Positions 20,385 to 39,542 of a stretch of 64,000 bases of DNA are shown one piece after another. The stretch comes from Desulfobacteraceae bacterium UBA2174 (GTDB lineage: Bacteria; Desulfobacterota; Desulfobacteria; Desulfobacterales; UBA2174): contig DCWA01000011.1 of NCBI GenBank assembly GCA_002327445.1, positions 13,945 to 77,944 on the forward strand, written 5' to 3'. Position 1 is the stretch's first letter; every line of letters starts with the position of its first letter. Below the pieces are notes generated by a model. It searched no databases and was not told the origin of the DNA. It worked only from the letters and a program-made list of their open reading frames with translations. The position numbers and the translations under genes were made by a program.

Positions 20385-21706
20385 ATGGAACCCCTCCCGA
20401 AAAGGCACAAATCGCCCGCTGCGCGACACCTGCCGCCCCTGCGCACCGCCTGGTGGGTTTGGGGCATGGCGGCACCGCTTTACCTGATCGGGTTCTTTTA
20501 CCGGGTGGCCCCCGCGGTGATGACCGCCGAAATGATGCGCACGTTTTCCATCGGCGCGGCGGCGCTGGGGAACCTGTCGGCCTTCTATTTTTACAGCTAT
20601 GTGTTGATGCAGATCCCCACCGGGGTCCTGGCCGATCGGTGGGGGCCGCGCCGGCTGCTCACCACCGGGGCGCTGGTGGCCGGGGCGGGAGGGGCGCTCT
20701 TCGCTTTGGCCCCCTCGTTGGGTTGGGCCTATCTGGGGCGTTTTCTCATCGGTGCCTCGGTGGCCGTGGCTTGGATCGGGTTGCTGAAGGTGGCCTCCGA
20801 CTGGTTTCCGCCGCGGCTGTTTGCCATGGTGACCGGGGTGGGGCTGCTCGGTGGAATTCTGGGGGCCGTGGGGGCGGGACCGCCGCTGCGCCTGCTCATC
20901 GACCACGTTCACTGGCGCATCGTGATGCTGGCGGCGGCCGGCGTCACCCTGGCGGTGGGCGCCGCGGTCTGGATGGTGGTACGCGATACCCCCGCGCAAA
21001 AGGGGTTTGTCAACTATTCGCACAGCGGTCCGGCCAAGACCCATCGGCCGGTGCGGGAAGGCTTGGCGGAGGTGTTGCGTTTTCGCAACGCCTGGCTGCT
21101 CTTCGTGATTCCCGGAGGCTTGGTCGGCGCCATCCTTACCTTCGCCGGACTCTGGGGAGTGCCGTTTCTCACTTCTCAATACGGGATGTCCACCGCCCGG
21201 GCATCGGTGTTGACATCGGTCCAATTGGTGGCCTGGGCCCTGGCCAGCCCCCTGTTCGGATGGTTTTCCGACCGCCTGGGGCGGCGCAAACCGCTTTACC
21301 TGGCCGGCCTGGTCACCGATTTGGCCGCCTGGGGGGCACACTGGTCTATCTTCCCGGTCTGCCACTGGCGGCGGTGGTGGGGCTTCTGGTGGTGACCGGC
21401 TGCGCATCCGGAGCCATGATCGTCAGTTTTGCCTTCGCCAAGGAATCGGTCCCGGCGGACCTGGCCGGCACGGTTTCGGGCCTGGTGAACATGGGAGTGA
21501 TGCTCGGCCCCATGCTGTTGCAGCCCCTGGTGGGCTGGGTTCTGGATACCTGTTGGACCGGCACCCTGGTGGACGGGGTGCGCCGATACGATGCCGCCGC
21601 CTACCGGGCGGGCTTTTCATTGATGATCGCCTGGCTGGCCCTGTCTTTGCTCCTGATTCTGTTCACCCGCGAAACCCGCTGCCGCCAATATCCGGCCACG
21701 CCTTGA
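20385..21706 (+). pseudogene. MFS transporter with an apparent -1 frameshift at a G6 run
   Basis: Frame 3 (track ORF 20349..21395; ATG at 20385) reads MEPLPKRH...FYFYSYVLMQIPTGVLADRWGPRRLL...FSDRLGRRKPLYLAGLVTDLAAWG. The protein continues in frame 2 (track ORF 20453..21706) as GTLVYLPGLPLAAVVGLLVVTGCASGAMIVSFAFAKE.... The break is at GGGGGG 21331-21336, and one extra G restores a 12-TM MFS. Confidence 0.8.
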
Positions 21707-22045
21707 CAGCCGAAACGATCTTCCGTTCCGGTCGCCGCCGCATATTAAATGAATGGAATTTGGTTTTTCTTGACGCTTCTATCCGATGAATTGTAATATT
21801 CACTACACTATCGTTTTGTCGTCTCTGAAAAAATCGTTCCTCAGAGGCGCCGCGCCGGCCGGATCCTGCGCCGGCGCGGCGAATGCGGATTCAGAGCTTG
21901 CAAGAGGATGCCGTTTCCCTGGTGGGCATGCGTAAGCGTCCGGGGAACCGCATCTTCTCAAGCCCATGAAAATTTCTCACAGATGGTCTCCACAGGCCGT
22001 GAACTATTTCAGCCAAGGAGGAGACATCGTGACAAGCGTTACCGT

Positions 22046-22308
22046 CGGCCACGGTGGTGTCCGGTTTGATCAAGGAGGTGACGACTGCATTGGTAATTTC
22101 CGGATGCGCTTCCGCCGTCTCGTCCCGATGAACATGGATTCCGGATCAAGTCCGGAATGACGGAACGGGGCCGGACGAATCCGGGTTCCTTCAGCAGGCC
22201 GTCACCCCGGTCCCGGATCAAGTCCGGGATGACGGACCCGGGGTCCATTTCGAACGGCTGAAGAATTCCAGGAGTATTTCCAGGCAATTGAGCGTAGTCA
22301 CATATAAG
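22046..22308. repeat. Copy A of a ~250-bp direct repeat bounding the TetR/radical-SAM cassette (contains MITE-like cores)
   Basis: cggccacggtggtgtccggtttgatcaaggaggtgacgactgc...gagcgtagtcacata(t/c)aag is near-identical to 26075-26318, with three substitutions seen. Copy A has a 25-nt segment (tcccggatcaagtccgggatgacgg, a second MITE core) where copy B has 6 nt. Confidence 0.9.
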
Positions 22309-22314
22309 GAGGTC

Positions 22315-22343
22315 TTGACAATTTTGGCCCGATGGACTAAATT
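22315..22343 (+). promoter_or_regulatory. Candidate sigma70-type promoter of the tetR gene
   Basis: TTGACA (22315-22320), a 17-nt spacer, then TAAATT (22338-22343). It sits 34 nt upstream of the tetR ATG and starts immediately after repeat copy A ends. It is followed by the direct repeat TAGTCATATAGTCAT. Confidence 0.45.
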
Positions 22344-22376
22344 AGTCATATAGTCATTTCCAAAAGGATTCGAGCT

Positions 22377-22976
22377 ATGGGGACAAAAGAGGCGAATACC
22401 TTGCGTGAGAGCATACTCGCTGCATCGAAAGAATTGTTTGCCCGGCTTGGTTTTAAGAAGACTGCGGTGGATGAGATCGCCAAGAAGGCGCGGGTAGCAA
22501 AAGGCACGATCTACAATTATTTCCGAAGCAAGGAGGAAATTTACCGGGCTATTTTGCAGCGAGAGGGCAAGATCATGATTGTCAAAATGCGTGAGGCGAT
22601 GGGGAACCAGAAGACTTCCCAATTGAAGGTAAGGGAGATGATCATTGCCAAGATCAAATATTATAAAGATTTGAGCCTGTTATACGAGATCAACCGCCAG
22701 CGGGCGGAGGATCTCCTACCTTTTATAGAGAAAGAGCGGGCGGAGATCGCCAAACAGGAGTTGAACCTCATCAAGGAGATTCTGGAAGAAGGGGTGAACA
22801 ACTCAGCACTCCAGGCAATAAATATCCCTGCTACAGCAAAGGCAATCGCGGCGGCAATTAACGGGCTTGAATTTGGATGGACTCTGGAAATGGAGTTAGA
22901 GGGGGCAACCGCCGAGATAGACGATCTCCTTCAAATCCTTTTTCATGGCCTTGAGCTCCGTAACGCAAGGGAGTAA
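22377..22976 (+). CDS. TetR/AcrR-family transcriptional regulator
   Basis: 199 aa. The N-terminal HTH is ILAASKELFARLGFKKTAVDEIAKKARVAKGTIYNYFRSKEEIY. G+C is visibly lower than the flanks (28/60 on line 22381-22440). Confidence 0.9.
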   Translation: MGTKEANTLRESILAASKELFARLGFKKTAVDEIAKKARVAKGTIYNYFRSKEEIYRAILQREGKIMIVKMREAMGNQKTSQLKVREMIIAKIKYYKDLSLLYEINRQRAEDLLPFIEKERAEIAKQELNLIKEILEEGVNNSALQAINIPATAKAIAAAINGLEFGWTLEMELEGATAEIDDLLQILFHGLELRNARE

Positions 22977-22991
22977 TTTTTTTTTACCTGT

Positions 22992-23020
22992 AAATGACCA
23001 AACGACCAATTTGGTCATTT
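22992..23020. promoter_or_regulatory. Perfect 11-bp inverted repeat, candidate TetR operator
   Basis: AAATGACCAAA-cgaccaa-TTTGGTCATTT lies between the tetR stop (22976) and the ATG of the fusion gene (23049). An AAAGGAG RBS follows at about 23036. Confidence 0.55.
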
Positions 23021-23048
23021 TTGGGGATAGAGGAAAAAGGAGCACTAA

Positions 23049-25436
23049 ATGTTTTATTTAAATTACTTCGTTATCTTTTCTATTATGGGGTGGATACTGG
23101 AAGCGCTTTTCCGTTCGGTGAAAAACCGTCGAATGATCAACCCTGGTTTGCTGAAAGGCTTCTACCTGCCAATTTACGGCTTCGGAGCCCTCTTTGTTTT
23201 AGGGGGTCATGTTATTTTTGATACATACAGCCTGCCGATCCGCTCCCTTTTTTATCTCATTTGTTTGTCGGTTCTCGAATTAATCACGGGAGCAGTCATA
23301 GAAAAGATTTTTCATGTACGTCTTTGGGATTATAGAGACGACCGCTTCAACATCCGAGGGCACGTTTGCCTGCTTTTTTCGATTTATTGGATGTTGCTGG
23401 CGACCGGGCTTGATGTTGCTCTCGATTTCCTTATTCCCTGGGCGTTACATGTTTATGAACGATTCGATTTCCTTATTGACGTTGTTCTTGGCTCGGTAGG
23501 GCTGGCAATGCTTATGGATTTCATCTTGGTTGCGCGCAGGAGGATAAGAGAACGCAGCGGGCTGGTGGATCAGGATACAGCCCGACGGAGATTTATTGAG
23601 ATCGCCCGGCCGCTGCTTGAACATCCGGGCGTTATCAAGTTAAAGGATTTTAACCACCATTTCGGTAAATCCCGCCTTGACCACGTCCTGGACGTTTCCT
23701 GGAAGGCGTTTCGGATATCAAAGCGCTTATCGCTCGACTCCGAAGCCGTAGTCAAAGGCGCCCTTTTACACGATCTTTTTTATTACGACTGGCTCCGGGA
23801 AGGACCGCGATGGCACGGCATCAGACACCCCCTCATTGCCCTACAAAACGCGCGGAAGATTACCCCCCTCTCCGCCAAGGAGGAAGACATCATCAGGAAA
23901 CACATGTGGCCTTTAACCGTGATTCCCCCTCGATATCCCGAGTCCTGGGTGGTGTGTTTCACGGATATCTATTGTTCGTGGCGCGACTATCTGGCACCGA
24001 TGGCGCTGTTTTGCGTGGGCAGGCGCAAGGAGTGGCTCCCGAGCGAAACGTCCCGTTTTCCTTCATATCGCGTTATAAACAATGGCTTTTTGCTCAACGT
24101 GGAAAAGGTCTCCAGCCTTCCCGGGCCGAAGCTCGCCGGCCGCTCTCTGAATATTTTGCTGATTGACGCGCAACCGCGCGCCTTACCGTTCACCAAGTTC
24201 AGAACCCTCACCCTGCCGCGATTGGCCGGAGCGACTCCGGGTAAGCACAACGTGCGGATTATCGATGGCCGGGTGGAGAAGATCGAGATCCCTTCGGGTA
24301 TGTTTGACTTGGCGGGAATCACCTTCTCGACCAATAACGTTCCAATGGCTTACGAGCTTGCCCAAAAGGCTAAGAAGACCGGCCTATTAACCGTGGCGGG
24401 AGGAACCCACGCCACCGCTGTTCCCGAAGAGGTTCTCGAACATTTCGACGCTGTTCTTATCGGCGAGGCCGAGGGCGGAGCATGGGAGAGTTTGCTGAAA
24501 GACGCAGAACTTGGTTCGTTGAAAAGAGTTTATCGTAATGCGGAGCCGCCGGATCTGCGCAATTTAGCGCCGCCTCGTCTTGACTTACTGCACGGACTTT
24601 ATCTGCCGGTCTACCCGGTGGAAGCCACCCGAGGATGTCCCAATCGTTGCTCCTACTGCTTCAATCGATATATTCATCCGACCTATCGTAAACGCCCCAT
24701 TGACGAGGTGGCAGCCGATGTGGCGCGTGCCGACAGCCGTCATATTTTCTTTATGGACGATAACCTCTGCGCTGACCGCGAGTATGCAAAGGAACTGTTC
24801 GCGGCCTTAGCCCCCTTGAAGAAAAAATTATGGATGCAAATGGAGCTGAGGTCCGCCCAAGACGAAGAACTGCTGCGCCTGGCTGCGGAGGCCGGCTGCA
24901 AGGGCGTTTTTGTCGGGTTGGAAAGCATCAATTCGGCAAGCCTGAAATCCGTCGATAAGTCCTTTAACCACGCGCAAAAATACAAGGAACAAATATCGGC
25001 TTTAACCCGGCATGGGATATTAGTCGGCGGCGGCCTGATCTTTGGGCTTAACGGCGATGGTCCTGAAGTTTTTACGCAGACTCTGGAGTTCTTCAAAAAC
25101 AGCGATATTACTTCCCTTGCGCCCAATCTTGTCATTCCATACCCGGGCACGGCCTTTCACAGACAAATTACAAATGAGGGGCGGTTATTGAATCGTGATT
25201 ATAAGCGCTACACAGGCTATAGCGTGCTCGTCCAGCCGGAGCGCATGACAGCCGATCAATTGGAAATGGAATACGACAAATTCAACCAGGAATTCTTTAG
25301 CATCAAAAACATCACCAGTCGATTTCGGCATCAGAATCTGCCCCTTCGGGTTCTGCCCTATTATCTTGTTTTTAATATGGCCTATCGTGTCCCGCGAAAA
25401 GCGAAATCACGGACTCATTGGGCGGAACTGGGGTGA
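23049..25436 (+). CDS. Tri-domain fusion: CmpB-like (PF06541-type) membrane domain + HD phosphohydrolase domain + B12-binding radical SAM domain
   Basis: 795-aa uninterrupted ORF. Residues 1-150: FSIMGWILEALF...LKGFYLPIYGFGALFVL...EKIFHVRLWDYRDDRFNIRGHVCLLFSIYW. Residues ~175-310: ...SRLDHVLDVSW...GALLHDLFYYDW...IIRKHMWPL. Residues ~360-795: ILLIDAQP...GGTHATAVPEEVLEHFDAVLIGEAEG (B12-binding-like), then EATRGCPNRCSYCFN (CxxxCxxC) and ...GVFVGLESINSASLKSV.... Confidence 0.8.
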   Translation: MFYLNYFVIFSIMGWILEALFRSVKNRRMINPGLLKGFYLPIYGFGALFVLGGHVIFDTYSLPIRSLFYLICLSVLELITGAVIEKIFHVRLWDYRDDRFNIRGHVCLLFSIYWMLLATGLDVALDFLIPWALHVYERFDFLIDVVLGSVGLAMLMDFILVARRRIRERSGLVDQDTARRRFIEIARPLLEHPGVIKLKDFNHHFGKSRLDHVLDVSWKAFRISKRLSLDSEAVVKGALLHDLFYYDWLREGPRWHGIRHPLIALQNARKITPLSAKEEDIIRKHMWPLTVIPPRYPESWVVCFTDIYCSWRDYLAPMALFCVGRRKEWLPSETSRFPSYRVINNGFLLNVEKVSSLPGPKLAGRSLNILLIDAQPRALPFTKFRTLTLPRLAGATPGKHNVRIIDGRVEKIEIPSGMFDLAGITFSTNNVPMAYELAQKAKKTGLLTVAGGTHATAVPEEVLEHFDAVLIGEAEGGAWESLLKDAELGSLKRVYRNAEPPDLRNLAPPRLDLLHGLYLPVYPVEATRGCPNRCSYCFNRYIHPTYRKRPIDEVAADVARADSRHIFFMDDNLCADREYAKELFAALAPLKKKLWMQMELRSAQDEELLRLAAEAGCKGVFVGLESINSASLKSVDKSFNHAQKYKEQISALTRHGILVGGGLIFGLNGDGPEVFTQTLEFFKNSDITSLAPNLVIPYPGTAFHRQITNEGRLLNRDYKRYTGYSVLVQPERMTADQLEMEYDKFNQEFFSIKNITSRFRHQNLPLRVLPYYLVFNMAYRVPRKAKSRTHWAELG

Positions 25437-25704
25437 ACGCGGGCTACCTGGAGCGATGAACAACTGAACCGTTGCTTTTCAATTGTTCCAGAATTTGAGA
25501 GGGAAATACATCGAAGAAGAGCACCCACATTATGCTTGGGCTTCTTGCGGCAATCGGATTGATGGCGCTGCACGGCTGTGCTTCCGTGCGCCCCAATGTC
25601 ATAAACTTAGGCTAAAACCTGCTGAATTACTTGACTTTTCAGCGTATTCTGCTATCCTGTGAACAGCTCAAAAACCCATCTTTTTTTCATCGAAAGGAGA
25701 AAAA

Positions 25705-25906
25705 ATGTCAAAAAATTCTTTGAAAAACGATAATGTTGGCACGGAGGTTGCTTTGCCAATCCTATGCCAAACTTATTGAATTTTTTAGAAATATCGTTAC
25801 CAGCCCCGAATTCTGCATCAAGCACCGCAACTCGGGAAAAGACTTCTCCAGAAACCGCAAGATTCCTTTTGTTGCCTTCCGCATTAATCCGCAGAAAAAT
25901 TCCTGA
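25705..25906 (+). pseudogene. Degenerate 5' remnant of an IS4-superfamily transposase gene
   Basis: An AAAGGAG RBS plus ATG 25705 gives MSKNSLKNDNVGTEVALP... and then a stop. Another frame continues with ...EFFRNIVTSPEFCIKHRNSGKDFSRNRKIPFVAF.... This resembles the conserved N-terminal box (F..HR....FTR.R.LPF) of IS4-like transposases. It is only ~65 codons and needs at least 2 frame changes. Confidence 0.35.
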
Positions 25907-26074
25907 TTAATTCGACCTTTGCTGGACAATTTCAGATTAAATCGGCGAGCCGCGGAAGCGGCCCGACGTGAGCTGAGTCAGTTGGCGGTTAGAACGGGAT
26001 GTTGTCTCGCATGGGGCAATGGTCTTTATAGCAGATCACCGGCGGACGCAACTTTCGATTGTCAGCGCCGCCGC

Positions 26075-26318
26075 CGGCCACGGTGGTGTCCGGTTTGATC
26101 AAGGAGGTGACGACTGCCTTGGTAATTTCCGGATGCGCTTCCGCCGTCTCGTCCCGATGAACATGGATTCCGGATCAAGTCCGGAATGACGGAATGGGGC
26201 CGGACGAATCCGGGTTCCTTCAGCAGGCCGTCACCCCGGGCAAAGACCCGGGGTCCATTTCGAACGGCTGAAGAATTCCAGGAGTATTTCCAGGCAATTG
26301 AGCGTAGTCACATACAAG
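26075..26318. repeat. Copy B of the ~250-bp direct repeat
   Basis: See 22046-22308. It contains the MITE core ggattccggatcaagtccggaatgacgg. Confidence 0.9.
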
Positions 26319-26588
26319 CCATGCCGCCGGCCGCAGGTGCGGCCTGATTGATCGTAGAAGAAGCTTTTACTTGAGCATGGGACGATTCACCTTTATGAGC
26401 ATGGCTGTTTTTTGGAACGGTAGCAGTCGAGACCCTTTTATCACTGGAGCATCTTGCCCCTATGACAAGCATGGTTCCGGGCCGCCCATGATCAATGATG
26501 AGGCAACCGCACTCACCTAAATTTTCCAGCTTCCTGTCAACTCAATCTGAAATCAACCCGCGGGTTCAAGACACTTTATTGTGGGACC

Positions 26589-26801
26589 CTACAGCGGATC
26601 GCTTGCTTGTCGGCGGTGACAGGGCAAGTCGCTCTTGATGACATAGCAGCCGTCGAGCTCGGCCACCTGCGCGATGTACGCCGTGTCCACGTTGACAGTG
26701 ATATGCCGGTCCGAGACGGTCACTGTCACCATGGAGCCCGAAACCAACCGCTCGGCCTTCTCCACGACTTTCATCCGCTTCCCCGGGAACATCCGTTCCA
26801 C
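26589..26801 (-). pseudogene. Internal fragment of an IS1634/IS4-type transposase
   Basis: The 70-aa track ORF reads ...FPGKRMKVVEKAERLVSGSMVTVTVSDRHITVNVDTAYIAQVAELDGCYVIKSDLP. The ...LDGCYV(I/L)K(S/T)DL box is characteristic of IS1634-family transposases. The downstream conserved (RYKDL...VE.AFR) part is missing. Confidence 0.4.
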
Positions 26802-26967
26802 CTCCGATCCTCGTCTTGGCCCGGCTCGAAAGGGCGGTTCTGCACGGCGAGGTGCCCGAAGATGTGCACATCGCCCTCGGGCGTCGAGGACTCTGGCATG
26901 GCCTCGATGCTTCCGGCAGGCTCGGTTGGGCGCGGCTGGCCCGGGCGGCCGGCGAGAAAGAGATATA

Positions 26968-29400
26968 TCAATGCCAGTTGATCAGTTTTTTGCGTGCTTT
27001 TGCGAGGTCTTCGGCTTCTTCCGGGAAGGTCGCCGGCAGTTTGAGGGCCTGCCGCAACTGGGCGAGAGCGGCTTCGCGCCGTCCCATGGCATGGTAGACC
27101 TTGGCCAGGCTGTACCGATGGGATATGCGATCTTTTGTCGCAATTGCCCGCAGCAGGAGGCTTTCCGCTTTTTCCAGCGAGGCGGGGGGGAGTCCACCAT
27201 AGACAAATCCGACGAAAGCCCCGGTCCAGGGCGGCAGGGAAGCAACCTTGTAATGCCAGCGGCTGAGCACAAGCAGGGAAATATCATCGTCGGGATCGAG
27301 GGAGAGGGCTTTCTCGATGTTTTCCTTAACCTTGCGAGAGAGGCGGATCCGCTCCCTTACATTGACATCTTCGGCCCGGGCTCCCAAGGCGACCGCCAGC
27401 CATTTGTATCCTTCGTCATTGCGCAGGTCCGCCTTGATGGCCTGTTGCGCCAATGCCTCCGCACGGCGGAAATGAGCGGATTTTTTGCGCGGGTCGCTGC
27501 TTGTCCGGCCAAGTTCGTACTGGTCGTACGCCTGGCGCCATAGGGGTATCGCCTGAGTTTTAACGGCTGTAACCGTGGAAGAGGGGGGCTGAATGACTCC
27601 CCCTACCGAAGGGGTGCCGGATAGAAAGCTCAAAGGTATGGACAGGACGGCAGACAAGAGAAGCATGTGAAACGGTTTCACTGGCGCTACCGTTCCGGTG
27701 GAAACCCTCGTGGGTTCGCTGCGATCGAGAACCACGGTCTTGTCCTTGATGCCGTAAACCCGGTCCGCAACTTTGACCAGCGCGGGCTGATGAGATATGG
27801 TAAGCATTGTGACTTTACCGCGGAGGCCGGCCAGAGTTTCGCAAATTGCTTTTTCGCTCTCGGGATCGAGGGCGCTTGTCGCTTCGTCGAGAATCAGGAG
27901 AGCCGGCCGATGGGCAAGCGCGCGGGCAATGGCGATACGCTGGCGCTGGCCGCCCGACAGTTGGGAACCGCGTTCCCCGACAATAGTCTGCAGCCCTTCC
28001 GGCATTGCCGAGACAAAATCCCGGGCTCCAGCGGCACGAAGCGCTGCTTCTGCATCGGTCGCATCGAGCCCGGAATCCCCCAGGGTGATATTGGCCAGAA
28101 TGGAATCGTGAAGAAGGACCGTGTCCTGGGGAACGTAGCCGATTTTGCTGCGCCAGTATTTCACGTCCATGTCACTCATGGGCACGCCGTCCACCAGCAC
28201 CTCCCCCTGCTGTGGACGCAGGAGGCCGGTCACAAGATCCACCAGGGTGGTTTTGCCGGCCCCCGAAGGCCCGATTACCGCAATGGAGGCTCCGGCGGGG
28301 ATCTCAAGGGATACCGATTTCAGAATCTGGACTTTGCCATAACTGAAGCTGACCCCGTCGAAACGCAGATTTTTTTCCAGCTCCACCTTTTTCTGACCGA
28401 GGTTCGGCTCTTGTTGCAGGTTGGCATCGTCGATTTTTTGTTGCAGCGACCAGAATGCACTTTCGCAGGTGCCCATTTCCTGGAGCTTGCGCTGCATCTT
28501 GCCGAATTCGCCGAGAAGCCGCGCCAGCAGAAAAACCATTACCATGACGCTCGGCAGATCATAGTTCCAAAGGACCAGCGTTGCATAGAGCCCTGCCACT
28601 ATGATGAGAATCAGGAACGGTTCCTGGAGGCTTTTCAGTATGGCTTTGCTGTAGACCTGTTTGCGCAGCGCCTTATTGAGCTTGAGGGTATCCTTCTCGA
28701 GCATTTTTTCGGCCAACTGCTCCCGTCCCATCGCTTTCAGCGGTTTTACCGATTGCAGGCAATCGGTTAAGCGGGAAAGCAGGGACTGCATCAAAGAGGT
28801 TTCCTGTCTGCCGGCCTTTTTTGCTTTGCGTATGAGGCGATTGAGTAAAACCATCAGCAGGCACCCGGCCGCAAAGGCCACGACACTGGCTTTCCAGGAG
28901 ATCATCAGGGCGACCACTGCATAAACGAAACACGTTACCATGTAGGTAACGGCCAAAGTCCCGTGCACGTAGGCAGTAGAGGCCCGTATGACTTCGCTGG
29001 CGGCAGAATTAGCCAGGCTGCCTATGGGGTGGCTAATATAATACTCCCAGCGGGTTCCAAGAATGGCACGCAGCAATGTAAGGCGCAGGTCTGTTGCCAC
29101 CAGGGCAACGGTGTACCCGACTTTGCGGTCGGCCAGCAGCACTAAAGCGCTTTTGAGAAGAACGCCTGCAACCACAACCATCAACAAGGAGGAGGCTGTC
29201 GGCGCAATACCCATGGCATGCAGTGCGGAGGTGACGGTTTTCCCGATCCCGGAATTCTTGGTGCCGCCAACGGCGATGTTAAGCATCGGCAAAAGGGCGG
29301 TCAGGCTGATTCCCTCCATTAAGCCGGCGAGAAGCTGGGCCAGGAGCATGGTGAGGGTATGCCGGGGGTAAGTCCGCAAAAAGTGAAGCATAAGTCGCAT
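26968..29400 (-). CDS. MsbA-like ABC exporter (6-TM domain + NBD) fused in frame to a hydrophobic anchor and a ~210-aa TPR-like domain; possibly two genes
   Basis: 810-aa ORF. The TMD covers residues 1-300. The NBD has [25 protein letters not shown] and LILDEATSALD, and ends ...ADRVYGIKDKTVVLDRS. With no stop, it continues as ...VKPFH-MLLLSAVLSIPLSFLSGTPSVGG (signal-peptide/TM-like; internal ATG at 27666). A helical-repeat domain follows (...AHFRRAEALAQQAIKADLRNDEGYKWLAVALG...YHAMGRREAALAQLRQALKL). Confidence 0.75.
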   Translation of the reverse strand: MRLMLHFLRTYPRHTLTMLLAQLLAGLMEGISLTALLPMLNIAVGGTKNSGIGKTVTSALHAMGIAPTASSLLMVVVAGVLLKSALVLLADRKVGYTVALVATDLRLTLLRAILGTRWEYYISHPIGSLANSAASEVIRASTAYVHGTLAVTYMVTCFVYAVVALMISWKASVVAFAAGCLLMVLLNRLIRKAKKAGRQETSLMQSLLSRLTDCLQSVKPLKAMGREQLAEKMLEKDTLKLNKALRKQVYSKAILKSLQEPFLILIIVAGLYATLVLWNYDLPSVMVMVFLLARLLGEFGKMQRKLQEMGTCESAFWSLQQKIDDANLQQEPNLGQKKVELEKNLRFDGVSFSYGKVQILKSVSLEIPAGASIAVIGPSGAGKTTLVDLVTGLLRPQQGEVLVDGVPMSDMDVKYWRSKIGYVPQDTVLLHDSILANITLGDSGLDATDAEAALRAAGARDFVSAMPEGLQTIVGERGSQLSGGQRQRIAIARALAHRPALLILDEATSALDPESEKAICETLAGLRGKVTMLTISHQPALVKVADRVYGIKDKTVVLDRSEPTRVSTGTVAPVKPFHMLLLSAVLSIPLSFLSGTPSVGGVIQPPSSTVTAVKTQAIPLWRQAYDQYELGRTSSDPRKKSAHFRRAEALAQQAIKADLRNDEGYKWLAVALGARAEDVNVRERIRLSRKVKENIEKALSLDPDDDISLLVLSRWHYKVASLPPWTGAFVGFVYGGLPPASLEKAESLLLRAIATKDRISHRYSLAKVYHAMGRREAALAQLRQALKLPATFPEEAEDLAKARKKLINWH

Positions 29401-29599
29401 TTATTCGTCCTTGAGCAGCCCCGGGAAGAGTACGATGATATAGCCCTTTTTTATAACATGATACACGGATCGAGGGAAGCGGACACGGTTTTCGGGCAAA
29501 AAAACCGGTTGAAAACGCACCGGCAGATAACCTATTCTGTTAAATTCGCACCTGTTCTTCCGTCGCTACCGCCATCCCCAAGGAGATTTTTCGGGCATC

Positions 29600-29775
29600 C
29601 AGGCAGACCTGTGGCTCTCGCAGGATGGTCGAGGAGTTGGGAGAGGCCGGCTACCGATGTTGGCCGCTATCGGGTCCGCAGCCTGATGCGCAGGTTGGGT
29701 CTCGGGGCCAAGACGCCGAGGCGCTACAAGGTGACCACCGACAGCAATCACAAGCATCCGGTGGCCCCTAGGATA
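29600..29775 (+). pseudogene. Short fragment of an IS3-family transposase (OrfB N-terminal region)
   Basis: Two frames read ...GSRRMVEELGEAGY and DVGRYRVRSLMRRLGLGAKTPRRYKVTTDSNHKHPVAP. This is the classic IS3 OrfB box (R.MR..GL....RR...TTDS.H...VAPN). It is about 60 codons and frameshifted, and is embedded in the spurious 5' part of track ORF 29359..30987. Confidence 0.6.
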
Positions 29776-29829
29776 AATTCTGTCTTCGTTTTGAACGGGT
29801 CACCATGCCGTAGAAGGGGATTTTGTATC

Positions 29830-30987
29830 GTGGTTCGAGTTGGATTCCTTTTCAATCATTATTTCATTCATCAAGTGCCTCATGCGGCTCCTTATGCTTT
29901 TGAGTTGTCGAGGCGTTATCCGAATATCGATGTCTTTATCGCATGCTCCTCTCGTCAAGAGATGAACTTTGCACAAGCCATCGCATCGCTCTATCCCGGA
30001 CATCGCTGCCAATTCACGAAACTTAAGATCCCCTGGTATTACAGATGCGTCGATCCGATCATATCCAAGTGGATATTCATGCGCAAAAATATCGTTCTCC
30101 GTCATAATCTCAATTTTTTTCGGGGACTGGACGCGCTTGTGTCGCCGGAGCGCCATTGTGTCAAGCTGCGCACCAAATATGGCCTGAAAGATTTGATCCT
30201 GATCAACACCCGTCATGGCGCAGGTGATAGGGAGGGGAGCTTCGATGACCGATCCGGTTCCTTTGATTTTACCCTTTTGCCGGGACAAAAATATGTTGAT
30301 CGGCTCAAAGACTTGGGCTACCTGGCGAAAGGGCGCTATGCCGTGGTCGGCTACCCGAAATTCGAAGTCGTCCGTGGCCTGAGGCGGAACGTTCCGCGAC
30401 TTTTCAACAATGATAATCCTACTATAATATATAATCCCCATTTTGACCCATCGGTCTCCTCCTGGAAGCCGATGGGGGTGGATGTTCTTGAATTTTTCAA
30501 TAAAAACAGAGCTTTTAACGTGATTTTGGCCCCCCATGCGGTGCTTTTTAAAAGAACCCACCGGCATCATGCCTCGCTTCCCGGCAAATACCGTTTAATC
30601 CCGAATATTCATGTCGATACAGGCAGTAACGCTTTAGCCGATATGACCTATACGCTTGCAGCCGATATCTACCTTGGGGATGTCAGCAGTCAAGTCTATG
30701 AATTTCTCCTGGAACCCCGTCCCTGTATTTTCCTTAACGGACATAAAGTCGCATGGCAGGGCAATCCATACTATGCGCATTGGAGGCTGGGGCAGGTAGT
30801 CGATAAAATTCAACCGGATTTGGGCCAGGCCCTGGAGCGGGCATTTACCGCACATCAGCAGTTTTTGGAAAAACAGCATGAGGCTTTCGTTTACACTTTC
30901 TATACTGAGGTAGGGACTACGGCGGCGGAGAGGGGAGCCGACGCCATAGCCAACTTTATTCTGACTTCGTCTAGTTTCCATCCATAA
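29830..30987 (+). CDS. TagB/TagF-like (CDP-glycerol glycerophosphotransferase-like) protein; start uncertain
   Basis: This is the 3' 385 codons of track ORF 29359..30987. The candidate start is GTG 29830, 9 nt after AGGGGA. Patterns PTIIYNPHFDP..., NVILAPHAVLF, ...LADMTYTLAADIYLGDVSSQVYEFLLEPRPCIFLN resemble the Glyphos_transf family (..DvlITDYSS...dfl.l.kPiif). It has the lowest G+C seen (21/60 on line 29821-29880). Confidence 0.45.
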   Translation: MVRVGFLFNHYFIHQVPHAAPYAFELSRRYPNIDVFIACSSRQEMNFAQAIASLYPGHRCQFTKLKIPWYYRCVDPIISKWIFMRKNIVLRHNLNFFRGLDALVSPERHCVKLRTKYGLKDLILINTRHGAGDREGSFDDRSGSFDFTLLPGQKYVDRLKDLGYLAKGRYAVVGYPKFEVVRGLRRNVPRLFNNDNPTIIYNPHFDPSVSSWKPMGVDVLEFFNKNRAFNVILAPHAVLFKRTHRHHASLPGKYRLIPNIHVDTGSNALADMTYTLAADIYLGDVSSQVYEFLLEPRPCIFLNGHKVAWQGNPYYAHWRLGQVVDKIQPDLGQALERAFTAHQQFLEKQHEAFVYTFYTEVGTTAAERGADAIANFILTSSSFHP

Positions 30988-31035: not shown

Positions 31036-32238
31036 TCAGGCGGGAGCATGCCGCAAACCGACATTTGCGGCCAAATCTCCGAACAGGGATACAATCCGCT
31101 CGATCTGCTCCTCCGTATGGGCCGCGCTGACGCTGCAGCGCAGCAGGCTTTCCCCCTTGGGGGCTGCCGGCGGCCATACCAGATTGACATAGATGCCGTT
31201 TTCGAGGAGTTCTTTCCAGCAAGCGAGGGTTTCTTCCTTCGATCCCATGTACACGGCAACCACCGGTGTCGGTTCGGGGCCGAGGCGGTATCCCAGCTCC
31301 GAAAGCCCCTCATAGAGCCTGTGGGCGTTTGCCCAGAGACGCTCGCGCAGATTCGCTCCGGCGGCAAGAACCTGAAGCGCCCGGCGCACCGAGGCGATGG
31401 TGGCCGGGGACGGAGACGCGGTAAAGAGGTAGGAGCGGCTCGCATAGCGTACCAGGTCGAGCTCGGGATGGTTGCTCACGCAGAATCCGCCGATGGCCCC
31501 GAGGCTTTTGCTGAAGGTGCCGATGATGAAATCGACGTCATCCATACAGCCGCACTCTTCCCCGAGCCCTCTGCCATTTTGGCCGAGAACCCCCAGCGAA
31601 TGGGCCTCGTCGACCAAGAGCCAGAAGCCGTATCGCTTCTTCAGGGAGACGATTTTGGCCAGAGGCGCCCGGTCGCCGAGCATGCTGTAGATTCCCTCGA
31701 CGATGATCAGGGTATTCTTTGCCCGGTCACCCAGGCGGCGCAGGCGCTTTTCGAGGTCGACGGTATCGTTGTGCCGGAAGCGGAGGATGTCGGCTCCCCC
31801 CATCCGGCAGCCGTCGTAGATGCTGGCATGGGAGTCGCCGTCTATAATTAAGGTGTCCCCGGGGCCGGTGAGGGTGGAGATGACGCCCAGGTTGGCGACG
31901 AATCCCGTGGAGAAGACGATGGCTTTGGCGCAGCCGAAGAACTCGGCCAGTTCCCTTTCCAGGGCACGATGCCCGGCGAATGTGCCGTTGGCCGTTCGCG
32001 AGCCGGTGGTGCCGGTCCCTTCAGATCGGGTAGCCTGGCAGGCCGCTTCGATGCACCGGGGATCGAAGGTCAGCCCGAGGTAGTTGTTGGTACCCGCCAG
32101 AAGCACCTTGCGGCCGGCTATGCGGGCTTCGGTTGGCGAGAGGATCTCCTCAATCTCCACGTTGAATGGATCGATCCCCATCTCATCCAGCGCCTGGCGC
32201 GCTTGGGCAACGAATGCGAGTTTATCGAAGAGTCCCAT
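31036..32238 (-). CDS. spt: Serine palmitoyltransferase (alpha-oxoamine synthase, PLP-dependent)
   Basis: 400 aa. It aligns by eye block-for-block with Sphingomonas SPT as I remember it: SPTEA.I.G...GTNNYLGLTFDP, GTGTTGSRTANGTF, AIVFSTGFVANLGVISTL, DSHASIYDGC...ILRFRHND, VEGIYSMLGD, LVDEAHSLG..GQNGRG, GTFSKSLGAIGGF (PLP lysine), LLRCSVSAAHT. An ACP gene lies immediately upstream. Confidence 0.9.
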   Translation of the reverse strand: MGLFDKLAFVAQARQALDEMGIDPFNVEIEEILSPTEARIAGRKVLLAGTNNYLGLTFDPRCIEAACQATRSEGTGTTGSRTANGTFAGHRALERELAEFFGCAKAIVFSTGFVANLGVISTLTGPGDTLIIDGDSHASIYDGCRMGGADILRFRHNDTVDLEKRLRRLGDRAKNTLIIVEGIYSMLGDRAPLAKIVSLKKRYGFWLLVDEAHSLGVLGQNGRGLGEECGCMDDVDFIIGTFSKSLGAIGGFCVSNHPELDLVRYASRSYLFTASPSPATIASVRRALQVLAAGANLRERLWANAHRLYEGLSELGYRLGPEPTPVVAVYMGSKEETLACWKELLENGIYVNLVWPPAAPKGESLLRCSVSAAHTEEQIERIVSLFGDLAANVGLRHAPA

Positions 32239-32241
32239 GTC

Positions 32242-32499
32242 TCAGGCCTCGATTTCTTTTTGAATCCGCAAAACGAAATCCCTCACCGTCCGGATTTCGG
32301 CTAGCTCGTTCAAGGTGAAGGAAATATCGTAGGCATCCTCCACTTCCTGAACAAGTTCCATCACCCGAAGGGAGTCCAGACCAAGATCGTTGACAATTTC
32401 CATTTCCTCCCGGATGCATTCCGGAACCTTGTCGAAGCGCTCGAGGATCGCCTTGACCGCTTCAAATATCTCCGCATAGTCTTTTTGGGGCACAGCCAT
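32242..32499 (-). CDS. Acyl carrier protein (dedicated, sphingolipid-type)
   Basis: 85 aa with the phosphopantetheine site LGLDSLRVMELV. 3-nt gap to spt. Confidence 0.9.
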   Translation of the reverse strand: MAVPQKDYAEIFEAVKAILERFDKVPECIREEMEIVNDLGLDSLRVMELVQEVEDAYDISFTLNELAEIRTVRDFVLRIQKEIEA

Positions 32500-32530
32500 G
32501 TTCCTCTACATTAAGAGCTTGATGAACGCG

Positions 32531-33499
32531 TCACCCGAGCGTGCGAAGCAACCCTTCGCGCAGCCCGACTTCCGGAGCCCAGCGGGTGACGCGCCTGAAA
32601 TCCGAATGATCGCCGACCCAGTCATCGTGGCACAGTTCTCCAACCTTGCCCGGCGTCAGCATCGGCAGGTATCCCGTGAGACGGGAAAAGGCCAAGTTGA
32701 CATGGGCCGCGGCATCCAGGGCGATCCGCGGAACATCGATACGCCTGACGGGACGCCGGTAGAGCTCGGAGGCTGTTTCCCGGACCTCTTCCCAGCAGTA
32801 CCCTCCCGCCTTGCCGTCGTGCAGCTCGAAGCAGCCGCCGCTGCCGGCGCCGCTCACCAGCCAGCTCAGGACCGCCTCCGCAAGGTCGTCGATGAAAATC
32901 AGCGAAAAGCGCCCTCGCCCACCTGCCGGGACAAAGGCGATTCCCCGCCGGAGCCATCGCAGCAGGGGAAGCATTTCGCGATCTCCGGGGCCATACACCG
33001 CCGGCGGCCGGATGATCGTCCAGTCGAGCCCGTCCGCCGCGCCGCGCAGGACCTCTTCCCCTTGCCGCTTGCTTGCGGCATAGCAGGAGAGTTGCGGCGA
33101 TCTGGCAGCCAGGGAGGAGATCAGAAGAAGGCGCGGAGAGTCCACCGAATTCCGCGCCATGGGTACGATCTTTGCCACTCCGGAAACGTTGGCCGGCACA
33201 AAGTCGGACACCGATGCGCCGCGCACGGATCCGGCACAATAAATAACGGCCGAAGCTCCGTCGAGAAGTTGCCTCAGACTTTCCTCACGGTTCAACTCGC
33301 CATGAATCCATGACAGCCCCGGCGCGTTGAAGCACGACGATATGGAGGCCGGGCGTACCAGCGCCCTGACGCGAATATTTTCCCGCAGGAAGCGATGAAT
33401 GAGGGATTTGCCGATGAAGCCGGTCCCGCCGGTCATGGCGACGGTTGTGACGTGGGCGGGCGCGGCATCATTGCGCGACTCGCGTACGGGTTCGACCAT
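32531..33499 (-). CDS. NAD(P)-dependent epimerase/dehydratase-family reductase (CerR-like candidate)
   Basis: Track ORF 32531..33787, trimmed to ATG 33499 (GGAG RBS; lies just after the ligase stop at 33504). The Rossmann motif is VAMTGGTGFIGKSL, and YAASK provides the catalytic YxxxK. Its position between the ACP and acyl-AMP ligase genes matches the Caulobacter spt-acp-cerR-ACP-synthetase order. Confidence 0.7.
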   Translation of the reverse strand: MVEPVRESRNDAAPAHVTTVAMTGGTGFIGKSLIHRFLRENIRVRALVRPASISSCFNAPGLSWIHGELNREESLRQLLDGASAVIYCAGSVRGASVSDFVPANVSGVAKIVPMARNSVDSPRLLLISSLAARSPQLSCYAASKRQGEEVLRGAADGLDWTIIRPPAVYGPGDREMLPLLRWLRRGIAFVPAGGRGRFSLIFIDDLAEAVLSWLVSGAGSGGCFELHDGKAGGYCWEEVRETASELYRRPVRRIDVPRIALDAAAHVNLAFSRLTGYLPMLTPGKVGELCHDDWVGDHSDFRRVTRWAPEVGLREGLLRTLG

Positions 33500-33503
33500 G
33501 CCC

Positions 33504-35270
33504 CTATCTCCCGGTTCGGCCGGCACACTGCAAGGGGGCTGAGAACAGATCCCGGTTCCGCCGGAGGAAATCGGCCCGCGCCATGCTTCTCGATATCTTC
33601 CCGGATGACGTTTGCGGCAGGGTGTGCGGGGGGACGAGCTCGACCATGCAATCGATGCCGAACTCTTCCCTGACGCGACCGCGCAGGGCCTGCACCAGGC
33701 GGTCGCGTTCCGTCCCGTCGAACTGACGGCACTGAACGACCAGAACCACGGTCTCGTCTTCTCCAGCCTCGCCGATGGAAAATGCAACAGCGTCCCGCGA
33801 ACGGATTCCCGGCATCTGCTCGGCTATGCATTCAATATCCTGCGGCCATATATTCCGGCCGTTGACGATGATCATGTCTTTTTTGCGGCCGGTGATAATC
33901 ATTTGGCCGCCGGCCAGATAGGCGAGGTCTCCGGTATTGAGCCAACCGTCGGGAGACAGGACTTCCCTTGTGGATTCCCGGTCGCCGAAGTATCCGCTCA
34001 TGACGCTGGGTCCGCGCACATGCAGCACCCCGCAGCGCCGCTCGGGCAGGACCATCCCCCGCTCGTCGCGGATCTCGATCTCGTACCCGGGAAGGGGCGC
34101 GCCGCAGAAGACGAGTTCTCTCGTCTTTCCATTGCTTTTGCTATCTTCAACGGGCATGGCTGTTCCGTTTTTCGCGAGCGTCTCGGCACTTATCCGGTCG
34201 ATCACCAGACCTTCGCCCAGGGGGGCGAAACTGACGGCAAGGGAACATTCCGCCAGGCCGTACGAGGCGACAAAGGCCCGGGAATGGAAGCCGGCCGGTT
34301 CCAGCAGCCGGGCGAAACGTTCGAGGATATCCGCACGGATGGGCTCGGCACCGATCCCGGCAATGCGCCAGGAGCTCAGATCGTACGGTTCGATTTCGGT
34401 GGGGCGGATGCGCCGCGCACATAGGGCGTATCCGAAGGTGGGGCTGTAGGAAATTGTGGCGCGGTTCCTGGAAATCAATGCCGGCCAGAGCCGCGGTCGC
34501 ATGGCGAAATCCCGCGTGCTCAGGTAATCGATGGAAAGCTGCGAAGCCATCGGCGCGAGAAGAAAGCCCACAAGCCCCATATCGTGGTAGAAGGGGAGCC
34601 ATGAGGCGCACCTGTCTCCGGGGCGGACACCGAGCCCGTTGCGGATGATCCCTTTCAGGTTGGCCATGACCGCTTTCTGCGTGATCACGACCCCGCGCGG
34701 GAAACGGGTGCTGCCCGAAGTGTATTGCAGGTAGGCGACTTCATCGCGATGAGGATGCTGCAGCGGCAAATCCGTCTCCGGAAGGGCGTCGAAGCAGGCT
34801 GGTTCCCCGACATGGACCAGATTCAGACCGTCAACGGCATCGGCCAGGAAGGGGCAGAAGGAGCTGGAACTCATTGCGGCCTTGGCTCCGCAGGAGACCA
34901 GGAGTTTGCGCAAATTTTCGCTAACGGCCTGGCGGCCGCCCAGATGGACTGCCGCGGGGAGAGGGACGGGAACCAGTCCGGCATACTGGCAGGCGAAGAA
35001 AAAGCGCACAAAATCGGCATCGGTACCGGCGATCAGGGCCATGCGCTCGCCCCGCTCGAGGCCCAGCCCCAGGAGCTTGCCCGCCAGCGACCGGGCACCG
35101 TCTCGCAACCGCGCATAGGAGAGGGAGGCTTCAAGCGCCCCTTTGCCGGAATAGAAATTGATCCCCGTCGTGCCTTCGGCTGCATAATCGAGGGCCTCGG
35201 CCAGGGTCTGAAAATCGCCTTGACGCAAGGCGATGGAGTTTTCGGTCGGCGTCATTTTAAGTTCATTCAT
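33504..35270 (-). CDS. Fatty acyl-AMP ligase / acyl-ACP synthetase
   Basis: 588 aa. AMP-binding motifs YLQYTSGSTRFPRGVVITQ, LPFYHDMGLVGF, ...YGLAE..., TGDLAY, and C-terminal ...PQTSSGKISR. The FAAL-type N-terminus is ...DFVRFFFACQYAGLVPVPL. Confidence 0.85.
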   Translation of the reverse strand: MNELKMTPTENSIALRQGDFQTLAEALDYAAEGTTGINFYSGKGALEASLSYARLRDGARSLAGKLLGLGLERGERMALIAGTDADFVRFFFACQYAGLVPVPLPAAVHLGGRQAVSENLRKLLVSCGAKAAMSSSSFCPFLADAVDGLNLVHVGEPACFDALPETDLPLQHPHRDEVAYLQYTSGSTRFPRGVVITQKAVMANLKGIIRNGLGVRPGDRCASWLPFYHDMGLVGFLLAPMASQLSIDYLSTRDFAMRPRLWPALISRNRATISYSPTFGYALCARRIRPTEIEPYDLSSWRIAGIGAEPIRADILERFARLLEPAGFHSRAFVASYGLAECSLAVSFAPLGEGLVIDRISAETLAKNGTAMPVEDSKSNGKTRELVFCGAPLPGYEIEIRDERGMVLPERRCGVLHVRGPSVMSGYFGDRESTREVLSPDGWLNTGDLAYLAGGQMIITGRKKDMIIVNGRNIWPQDIECIAEQMPGIRSRDAVAFSIGEAGEDETVVLVVQCRQFDGTERDRLVQALRGRVREEFGIDCMVELVPPHTLPQTSSGKISRSMARADFLRRNRDLFSAPLQCAGRTGR

Positions 35271-39523: not shown

Positions 39524-39542
39524 TCGGTGGGGAGTTTTTGCC

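Follow-up and report, generated by a model that had tools for sequence, protein, structure and literature searches.

A rare fusion of a CmpB-type membrane domain, an HD hydrolase and a B12-type radical SAM domain in uncultured bacteria, and its possible role in membrane-lipid modification

Among the radical S-adenosylmethionine (radical SAM) enzymes that work on lipids, HpnP and HpnR (the hopanoid C-2 and C-3 methylases), Gmm (a methylase of glycerol monoalkyl glycerol tetraethers, GMGT), GrsA and GrsB (the ring synthases of glycerol dialkyl glycerol tetraethers, GDGT) and HpnJ are built from a B12-type Rossmann domain, a CxxxCxxC core and C-terminal helices, and they act on unactivated carbons of membrane lipids. 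The known lipid enzymes of this kind are single-module proteins, and the terms 'HD domain' and 'transmembrane' appear nowhere in the text of a 2026 review of lipid-modifying radical SAM enzymes. Here we describe a gene at positions 23049-25436 of a 64-kb stretch from Desulfobacteraceae bacterium UBA2174 (contig DCWA01000011.1; hereafter the window). Its single product has the same three parts and adds to them, on one chain, a transmembrane (TM) domain of five helices and an HD hydrolase domain; by comparison with the lipid enzymes, it too would act on unactivated lipid carbons. On balance, and with modest confidence, we suggest that the gene encodes a TetR-repressed, self-contained, membrane-anchored enzyme that modifies membrane glycerolipids.

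Other described systems resemble this fusion in part. AprD4, the 1,2-diol dehydratase of apramycin biosynthesis, has the same two-domain Rossmann and radical SAM layout, but it is soluble, has an aminoglycoside substrate and is not a methylase, whereas the fusion is membrane-anchored. Ger (glycerol ester reductase), through which anaerobic bacteria turn ester bonds into ether bonds, has many deltaproteobacterial homologues and is defined by the so-called BBD core (Sahonero-Canavesi 2022, PMC13159169). Its action on membrane glycerolipids was shown by heterologous expression (PMC13159169), whereas that of the fusion is proposed here from comparison. Placed in the BcrAD_BadFG / 2-hydroxyacyl-CoA-dehydratase family, Ger has no sequence or fold relationship to the radical SAM fusion, yet both are oxygen-sensitive Fe-S radical enzyme types. 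The anaerobic ether-lipid (plasmalogen) synthases Ger and PlsA-PlsR also share a genomic niche with the radical SAM part of the fusion, BBD proteins being encoded downstream of CmpB-HD genes where the radical SAM domain sits here. Finally, PgpH joins a polytopic membrane domain (7TMR-HDED) to a cytoplasmic multi-histidine HD domain, a layout like that of the fusion; the membrane families differ, that of the fusion being PF06541, and there is no sequence-level similarity between the two.

The gene is one uninterrupted open reading frame (ORF) with an ATG start and no internal stops, and its parts are as follows.

23049-25436, forward strand: fusion gene CmpB-HD-B12-like-radical SAM, 795 aa
23049-23543, forward strand: CmpB (PF06541) membrane domain, residues 1-165, with 5 predicted TM helices (Pfam, model, hydropathy)
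23559-24083, forward strand: putative HD metal-dependent hydrolase domain, residues ~171-345 (Pfam, fold search, invariant ligands)
24144-24548, forward strand: Rossmann-like B12-binding-type domain, residues ~366-500 (PF02310 at 35-36 bits, beta-alpha-beta in the model, fold matches)
24606-25148, forward strand: radical SAM core, residues ~520-700 (PF04055, invariant cysteines, fold search)
25149-25433, forward strand: C-terminal helical region, weakly DUF4070-like (domain scan, model, alignment)

With the full protein as query, Pfam places PF06541 (ABC_trans_CmpB) at residues 6-160 with 114.5 bits against a cut-off of 25.9 (profile positions 2-149 of 151), PF04055 (Radical_SAM) at residues 525-681 with 63 bits against 29.5, and PF02310 (B12-binding) at residues 417-476 with 35.1 bits against 32.1 (35.1-36.5 bits over both scans). 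PF01966 (HD), at residues 209-247, reached 20.5 bits, under its cut-off of 22, and narrowly passed it with 22.4 bits when the HD segment was scanned alone. The original prediction, made by a model from the sequence without database searches, had named these four families and read three modules on one uninterrupted 795-aa ORF. Pfam, the alignment of the fused family and AlphaFold all bear out the modules and the frame, with three families above their cut-offs and the HD domain at the border; we take the latter to be a divergent member of the HD superfamily.

The residues that would matter for catalysis are strongly conserved. The HD ligand set (H212, H241-D242, H256, H260, H285 and D306) is invariant across the fused family and 70 stand-alone CmpB-HD relatives, the cysteines of the radical SAM motif CxxxCxxC (C530/C534/C537) are invariant in 23 aligned sequences, and V449-A450-G451-G452, H454 and T456 are invariant in the B12-type domain. 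In the CmpB domain, E18, R22, E77, W93, Y95 and D157 are shared without exception by the fused family and the stand-alone relatives, while D94 shows no variation among the fused proteins and is kept in at least 90% of the relatives; since these residues are charged or polar, they argue that the domain may be more than a passive anchor. The C-terminal region ends with a conserved hydrophobic helix at residues ~766-785 (LPxY...N...PR). Across the family, the alignments show the CmpB domain, the HD ligands, the CxxxCxxC motif and the Rossmann domain alike to be under purifying selection.

An identical protein was called on 11 contigs from NCBI (GCA_002403345.1), ENA and JGI assemblies, and a word-indexed search of 5.8 billion proteins found 22 further full-length clusters with the same domain order at 55-94% identity, for at least 23 protein clusters with the collinear fusion in all. 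HMMER over 1.84 billion 50%-identity representatives gave the family as one representative and one divergent lineage, P0292, an 895-aa protein at 35% identity with the same CmpB-HD-B12-radical SAM order and intact HD ligands. About 8 of 185,579 species genomes carry the fusion, every one an uncultured metagenome-assembled genome (MAG) of Desulfobacterota type, labeled Deltaproteobacteria, Thermodesulfobacteriota, Desulfomonilia or 'Bacteriovoracaceae', and plasmid and phage searches returned no full-length copy. The fused family is real, conserved and rare. The chance that it is an assembly or frameshift artifact uniting separate genes is negligible. CmpB-HD and radical SAM proteins do exist as separate genes elsewhere, and at two loci, L008 and L019, the radical SAM part comes after a truncated CmpB fragment and lies in a different frame. 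However, the identical ORF stands on 11 independently assembled contigs, the 22 further clusters and P0292 hold the frame through divergent linkers (about residues 160-185 and 320-365 in the aligned fused proteins, variable and never interrupted), and AlphaFold is confident over both junctions except at residues 353-362. Because the collinear fusion recurs in at least 23 clusters with invariant HD ligands and CxxxCxxC, we do not regard it as an assembly artifact. At L008 (608-2237) and L019 (3768-5397), a 100-aa CmpB fragment precedes an out-of-frame radical SAM ORF of 446-476 aa that starts just past the HD region; these loci come from two MAGs, and the arrangement is a lineage-specific deletion derivative of the fusion.

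All four domain families were already known, and it is the fused arrangement that is without a characterized member. Our literature searches found no description of this architecture, no paper combining a B12-binding radical SAM enzyme, an HD domain and a lipid, and nothing functional or experimental on PF06541/CmpB/DUF1113. The claim that no characterized protein has this architecture is upheld by both the literature and the database searches; its unusual character stands as regards rarity, although the arrangement is not unique to this genome.

The AlphaFold model of the full-length protein has a mean predicted local distance difference test score (pLDDT) of 90.9 and a predicted template modeling score (pTM) of 0.68, with disorder only at the short linker segment noted above. 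The model and hydropathy both predict five TM helices; because the K/R-rich loops lie on the same face as the C-terminal side of helix 5, the HD and radical SAM domains are predicted to be cytoplasmic, the location that Fe-S/SAM chemistry requires. A fold search with a separate model of residues 1-345 (pLDDT 88) matched HD-superfamily structures only, at a probability of ~1 and weak E-values (at least 0.05), and returned no solved structural counterpart of the CmpB domain. These matches include an HD-GYP protein and the HD domain of PgpH, and a membrane domain joined to an HD domain is a layout typical of signaling phosphodiesterases. We therefore considered a membrane sensor with a phosphodiesterase for nucleotide second messengers, like the 7TM-HD cyclic di-AMP hydrolase PgpH, in which the radical SAM part would be unrelated or regulatory. 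We consider this very improbable. With E-values from 0.28 upwards (0.28 for PgpH) and TM-scores of about 0.4, the matches are weak and do not surpass those to HD hydrolases in general; the five-helix membrane domain is PF06541 and not 7TMR-HDED; and no cyclase or effector genes lie near in the loci examined. The fusion, without a signaling context and with an added radical SAM domain, and the translational coupling of its unfused relatives to Ger, described below, argue instead for a metabolic role.

The C-terminal half matched many radical SAM structures in Foldseek at a probability of 1.0, among them AprD4, MgmA, TsrM, CysS, TokK and OxsB. AprD4 (PDB 6FD2) is the closest solved structure to residues ~350-795 (E 8e-19, TM-score 0.71, target-normalized), and phmmer matches it at E 1.4e-6, with 17% identity. 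Together with the PF02310 match, these folds sustain the earlier class-B assignment in the sense of a Rossmann domain and a fold of class-B type, with which use of cobalamin itself would be consistent. The translated fusion protein has no DxHxxG motif, which is usually missing from class B radical SAM enzymes, and we know of no universal sequence motif for cobalamin binding among them.

None of the NCBIfam equivalog cut-offs (HpnJ, HpnR, PhpK, BchE, the ladderane radical SAM model TIGR04072, AprD4, MgmA and TsrM) was reached by the fusion, nor was any by 10 relatives in the radical SAM clade. The scores against cut-offs were 91.8/577.6 for HpnJ, 70/600 for PhpK, 64/650 for HpnR, 60/481 for BchE and 48/500 for AprD4; HpnJ and HpnR are among the best-scoring models, yet 5-10 times under their cut-offs. 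A weak likeness to methylases of peptides and proteins also appears in these scans, namely to the C-methyltransferases of ribosomally synthesized and post-translationally modified peptides (RiPPs) and to the glutamine methylase of methyl-coenzyme M reductase (MCR). With the MgmA fold match and the nominal description of PF06541 as a 'putative ABC transporter' family, it could point to a RiPP- or protein-modifying B12-radical SAM methylase on an export-type membrane domain. We hold this to be extremely unlikely, as the NCBIfam scores are far under their cut-offs, the low-GC cassette that holds the gene, described below, contains no precursor-like small ORF, and no ATP-binding cassette (ABC) ATPase, protease or RiPP recognition element was found in more than 10 loci. 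The ATPase partner that would mark PF06541 as an ABC transporter component is absent beside the CmpB genes of L005, L006, L008, L011-L013, L021 and L097-L099.

Most characterized class-B enzymes are methylases, and the original prediction took methylation as its premise. That premise is not to be taken for granted: the closest fold is a diol dehydratase, and the best NCBIfam scores, far under cut-off, belong to HpnJ, which acts in ring contraction, and, among relatives, to the cyclase BchE. These same matches favor a different enzyme on a membrane-lipid substrate, one whose radical SAM domain does not methylate and instead forms an sn-2 ether, couples tails through a C-C bond, cyclizes or dehydrates, possibly without cobalamin. 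The radical SAM domain also takes the place of Ger, itself a reductase/dehydratase-type enzyme, and GrsA and GrsB show that B12-type radical SAM enzymes can form rings in lipids (2026 review of lipid radical SAM enzymes). In D. alkenivorans, the enzyme for the sn-2 ether is not clearly assigned and Ger2 is inactive alone, though dialkylglycerols have been reported there from Ger itself (PMC11150832). The prevalence of methylases in the class counts against such an enzyme, as do the PF02310 match and the retention under selection of a GG-containing Rossmann domain, which fits real cobalamin use. We regard non-methylating chemistry as a serious possibility, albeit an unlikely one.

The strongest indication of a lipid substrate comes from unfused relatives of the N-terminal half. 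Searching with fusion residues 1-329, we found stand-alone CmpB-HD proteins (~342 aa) in at least 594 clusters. They are 45-66% identical to fusion residues 1-345, come mostly from Desulfobacterota (Desulfosarcina, Desulfobacterium, Desulforhabdus and Geoalkalibacter) and have database annotations that go no further than 'phosphohydrolase' or 'putative ABC transporter permease'. They share the invariant residues of the fusion but lack the radical SAM half, and they appear to be the evolutionary source of its N-terminal half. At L011, L012, L013 and L099, which are all the loci of this kind that were inspected, the CmpB-HD gene is directly followed by a gene for a 1479-1505-aa protein with two stretches of PF01869 plus PF09989 (DUF2229), an architecture that matches the BBD core and on which our label of Ger-like rests. 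The CmpB-HD stop overlaps the start of the large gene at L011-L013, and at L099 a called ORF of 56 codons bridges the two. Of 120 listed CmpB-HD clusters, 15 have a longest contig equal in size to that of one of 120 listed Ger-like clusters; 8 of these 15 pairs are on contigs of 30 kb or less, and 3 were confirmed by contig inspection. The surrounding island is likewise conserved and contains genes for TetR, an outer-membrane factor, a membrane fusion protein, a resistance-nodulation-division (RND) pump, a patatin-like phospholipase, a 381-aa DUF6781 protein, and UbiB or LpxR. At L011, where the order is TetR - CmpB-HD - Ger-like, TetR and CmpB-HD are each ~63% identical to the window TetR and to the N-terminal half of the fusion, and on this ground we suggest that the radical SAM domain occupies the position of Ger. 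The BBD core itself is found neither in the fusion protein nor anywhere in the 64-kb window.

The DUF6781 proteins (~381 aa, rich in Ala, Glu and Lys, helical) are encoded at L012 13579-14724, L008 3838-4980, L021 9638-10780 and L011 6505-7647, with 57-61% identity; they are usually accompanied by an unannotated protein of 353-357 aa, patatin and UbiB, and their composition resembles that of apolipoprotein- or phasin-type proteins. In the Desulfosarcina alkanivorans island (L012), a DDE_3 transposase gene has inserted at 1348-2745, beside a 42-aa duplicate of the patatin N-terminus. A link between HD and PlsA in Firmicutes was considered and rejected, since the flanks examined held no adjoining plsA.

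The radical SAM half also has relatives in lipid contexts. At L019 the order is TetR, a stand-alone B12-radical SAM gene whose product is 66% identical to the radical SAM half of the fusion, a second radical SAM gene of SPASM type, a CDP-alcohol phosphatidyltransferase, CmpB-HD and Ger-like. The CmpB-HD and Ger-like pair of L019 lies 2.6 kb downstream of the deletion derivative, and this CmpB-HD appears split in two ORFs (7881-8546 and 8458-8976). L008 has the same radical SAM pair followed by DUF6781 (61% identical to the copy in the Desulfosarcina Ger cluster), patatin and UbiB. The second radical SAM protein of L008 and L019, tested as a Tes/Mss-type enzyme, proved to be a generic SPASM/twitch protein (GDGT-MAS score 22 bits). 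At L021 a full fusion has an RND pump plus TetR regulators on one side and DUF6781, UbiB, YitT and patatin genes on the other, and at L006 a fusion lies amid LolA-like, DUF1302, MMPL, HAD, CDP-OH-P-transferase/GtrA, MMPL-PgpA, MlaC and OEP genes. In L005 (6784-9068), a Desulfomonilia MAG, a MarR gene and two genes for HGD-D, the D-component of 2-hydroxyacyl-CoA dehydratase, precede the TetR and fusion genes; HGD-D and the dehydration modules of Ger/PlsA are members of one enzyme superfamily. As a Rosetta-stone expectation, we looked for a stand-alone radical SAM orthologue beside CmpB-HD and found it only at L019, with no CmpB near L007/L023 or L009/L010.

Stand-alone relatives of the radical SAM half (~440 aa, 33-41% identity) number 1508 representatives with E below 1e-30, and several have acquired further domains. 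P0378 carries an HAE3/HpnN-like MMPL transporter, P0309 a phospholipase D/cardiolipin-synthase-like domain, P0401 a weak MBOAT match, and P0379 MBOAT, LolA-like and MucB/RseB domains, while others are fused to DUF362, GNAT or ferredoxin domains. These independent fusions would seem to point towards lipids.

By analogy with the CmpB-HD/Ger pairs, we suggest that CmpB-HD is a membrane adaptor and phosphohydrolase that would normally partner an oxygen-sensitive radical enzyme whose substrates are intact phospholipids. For most Desulfobacterota the usual partner would be a Ger/PlsA-type ester-to-ether reductase encoded directly downstream, and in the lineage of the window a radical SAM domain of class-B type would stand in the position of Ger, fused in frame. 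CmpB may bind or present a membrane glycerolipid, and the HD domain may hydrolyze a phosphoester of either the head group or a phosphorylated intermediate. The radical SAM domain, in turn, may carry out radical C-H chemistry on the lipid. A phosphatidylglycerophosphate (PGP)-type substrate is attractive because CDP-alcohol phosphatidyltransferase and PgpA recur in related clusters. We favor a chemistry in which an unactivated carbon of the chain is methylated with the help of cobalamin, since the B12-type domain is conserved and ether-lipid sulfate reducers have methyl-branched chains; in D. alkenivorans, 10-methyl-C16 acyl and alkyl chains are plentiful (PMC11150832). Formation of an ether, a C-C bond or a ring would be almost equally likely, given that a dehydratase is the nearest structure and that HpnJ/BchE types give the best profile matches. 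The original prediction proposed a membrane-embedded, phosphorylated lipid substrate, and this proposal is reinforced by the coupling to Ger, by the radical SAM gene in a lipid island and by the fusions to lipid modules; the substrate itself is still a conjecture.

Several observations weigh against this proposal. The fused family, the CmpB family and the surrounding radical SAM clade are all without a characterized member, so that substrate and reaction are deduced from context, and the Pfam score of the HD domain is borderline. Most fused genes, including that of the window, have no nearby lipid genes beyond TetR, and the lipid context depends on L006, L021, L019 and L008 and on unfused relatives. 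All NCBIfam methylase models score far under cut-off, the closest solved structure is a dehydratase, and AprD4 is not known to use cobalamin even though it has a B12-type domain. As for the Ger link, the validated Ger (SHJ90043, D. alkenivorans) is not in the best 120 of at least 8000 BBD family members, and no Ger or PlsA gene was found in the flanks examined of HD/CmpB-HD genes from Firmicutes (Listeria, Enterococcus and gut contigs). Moreover, Ger by itself is enough to form ethers in E. coli (PMC13159169), and CmpB-HD would therefore not be an obligatory subunit of Ger.

The surroundings of the fusion gene in the window bear on its regulation and mobility, and the features concerned are as follows.

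22035-22308, no strand assigned: left direct repeat of ~270 bp (repeat search; homology to L003 starts at 22030)
22315-22347, forward strand: promoter-like TTGACA-17-TAAATT at 22315-22343 (10/12 match), with the palindrome GACTAAATTAGTC at 22335-22347 over its -10
22377-22976, forward strand: TetR-family regulator, 199 aa (PF00440, 58 bits)
23004-23016, forward strand: palindrome GACCAATTTGGTC, 33 nt 5' of the fusion ATG, a candidate TetR operator and also a weak terminator-like hairpin
25437-26063, no strand assigned: low-GC non-coding cassette tail with no credible ORF (GC, ORF scan)
26064-26318, no strand assigned: right direct repeat of ~255 bp, 97-99% identical to the left copy
26968-29400, reverse strand: ABC exporter, MsbA/HepA-like, below every family cut-off (profile scans)
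31036-32238, reverse strand: serine palmitoyltransferase equivalog NF047599 (630 bits, cut-off 500)

The TTGACA-17-TAAATT sequence is the best promoter match of the region, and GACTAAATTAGTC, which is related to GACCAATTTGGTC, is a candidate autoregulatory TetR operator. A TetR gene lies directly 5' of the fusion in 9 of the 11 fused contexts examined, and L005, L015, L017, L018 and L022 have inverted repeats at the equivalent position between TetR and the fusion. The nearest NCBIfam model to the window TetR is the acyl-CoA-responsive FadR of Bacillus type, at 72 bits against a cut-off of 200. We suggest that TetR probably releases its two operators on binding a lipophilic ligand.

The TetR and fusion unit has a GC content of 0.43-0.57, against 0.60-0.69 in the flanks, and the left repeat contains an internal duplication of 30 nt (22141-22170 / 22213-22242). 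The original prediction was right that the gene has its own TetR and operator-like palindromes and lies in a low-GC cassette bounded by repeats. At 7282-11118 of L003, the same cassette is found at 99.9% nucleotide identity 3' of a pyruvate:ferredoxin oxidoreductase (PFOR) gene, with homology to the window beginning at position 22030, the edge of the left repeat; the cassette (~4 kb) has moved, since the same unit occurs in a second context with homology starting at that edge. This suggests insertion by recombination at the repeated segment, and no integrase or transposase gene is present inside the cassette. L004 lacks a 42-bp internal duplication (22171-22212). The cassette tail (~630 bp) has no RiPP precursor or other small gene; a 27-codon ORF at 25532-25615 on the forward strand (MLGLLAAIGLMALHGCASV...), which resembles the signal peptide of a lipoprotein, lipobox included, and then meets an early stop, is probably the remnant of a decayed gene. 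An Rfam scan of 21400-27200 gave no credible structured RNA and only a spurious microRNA match, and a PADLOC scan with defense models gave only a generic 26-bit radical SAM match (PDC-M51A).

A compact two-gene TetR unit in a low-GC, repeat-bounded cassette, present in two genomic contexts, could also be read as encoding an enzyme that tailors, or gives resistance to, a lipophilic small molecule (a xenobiotic, an antibiotic or a signal), with the membrane domain capturing the compound and the cassette spreading as resistance genes do. Exporters of the major facilitator and ABC types adjoin the cassette in the window, and many homologues are isolated units of TetR and the fused gene. Against this, the exporters would be chance neighbors because the cassette is mobile, no plasmid or phage copy was found, the N-terminal family is tied to Ger-type lipid islands and not to biosynthetic or resistance clusters, and the radical SAM relatives are fused to lipid-handling domains. 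We consider such an enzyme improbable and retain the glycerolipid-modifying enzyme as our preferred reading.

Nor do we give much weight to the sphingolipid cluster and the lipid exporter, whose nearness the original prediction had taken as functionally meaningful. The genes are real, but the closeness of the fusion to them is probably coincidental, because the cassette also occurs at L003 in a different context and other fused genes have unrelated neighborhoods, as do most homologues. The cluster of sphingolipid type (31036-35270, reverse strand) comprises serine palmitoyltransferase, an NAD-dependent epimerase/reductase-like gene and a fatty acyl-AMP ligase (806 against 600), and the ABC exporter has an unusual C-terminal extension of ~190 aa that is tetratricopeptide repeat (TPR) / RMD1-3-like (residues 620-794). 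In a second stretch of lower GC (0.49-0.55), an ORF of 542 aa (29359-30987, forward strand) with no NCBIfam family and only a weak HTH_21 Pfam match may be another foreign insertion or a non-coding artifact. Further on, a second radical SAM gene (42003-43229, forward strand; 408 aa), weakly like NirJ2 (59 bits) and scoring 55 bits with the model of the tetraether synthase Tes against a cut-off of 450, lies between lptF/lptG (38429-40607) and a DAGK_cat lipid-kinase-like gene (43256-44323, reverse strand).

Bacterial ether lipids, methyl-branched lipids and membrane-spanning lipids are major environmental biomarkers, and several steps of their biosynthesis in anaerobes are without an assigned gene. 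In D. alkenivorans, where Ger2 fails to act by itself, the authors suspect that partner enzymes or a cofactor are missing from ether-lipid formation (PMC11150832), and we speculate that CmpB-HD is a candidate for that role. A bolder form of this idea, which we consider doubtful, is that the fusion and its unfused CmpB-HD and B12-radical SAM relatives are the missing branched ether-lipid enzyme. As machinery embedded in the membrane, they would introduce mid-chain methyls (10-methyl, or of the kind found in branched GDGT, brGDGT) or a second ether or C-C bond directly on intact phospholipids, with CmpB-HD as the so far overlooked membrane partner without which Ger-type and radical SAM lipid enzymes would not reach full activity. 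The number and position of methyl branches are what palaeothermometry based on brGDGT depends on.

Our results offer leads whichever chemistry applies. CmpB-HD, with its at least 594 clusters, is a conserved and translationally coupled partner of Ger-type synthases in Desulfobacterota, and the B12-type radical SAM clade (~1500 representatives at E below 1e-30) has been fused repeatedly to lipid-handling modules; the fusion unites the two families and provides a single gene as an experimental handle. If our proposal is true, it would also present radical SAM enzymology with an enzyme of class-B type tied covalently to both the membrane and a phosphohydrolase, of which we found no description in the literature.

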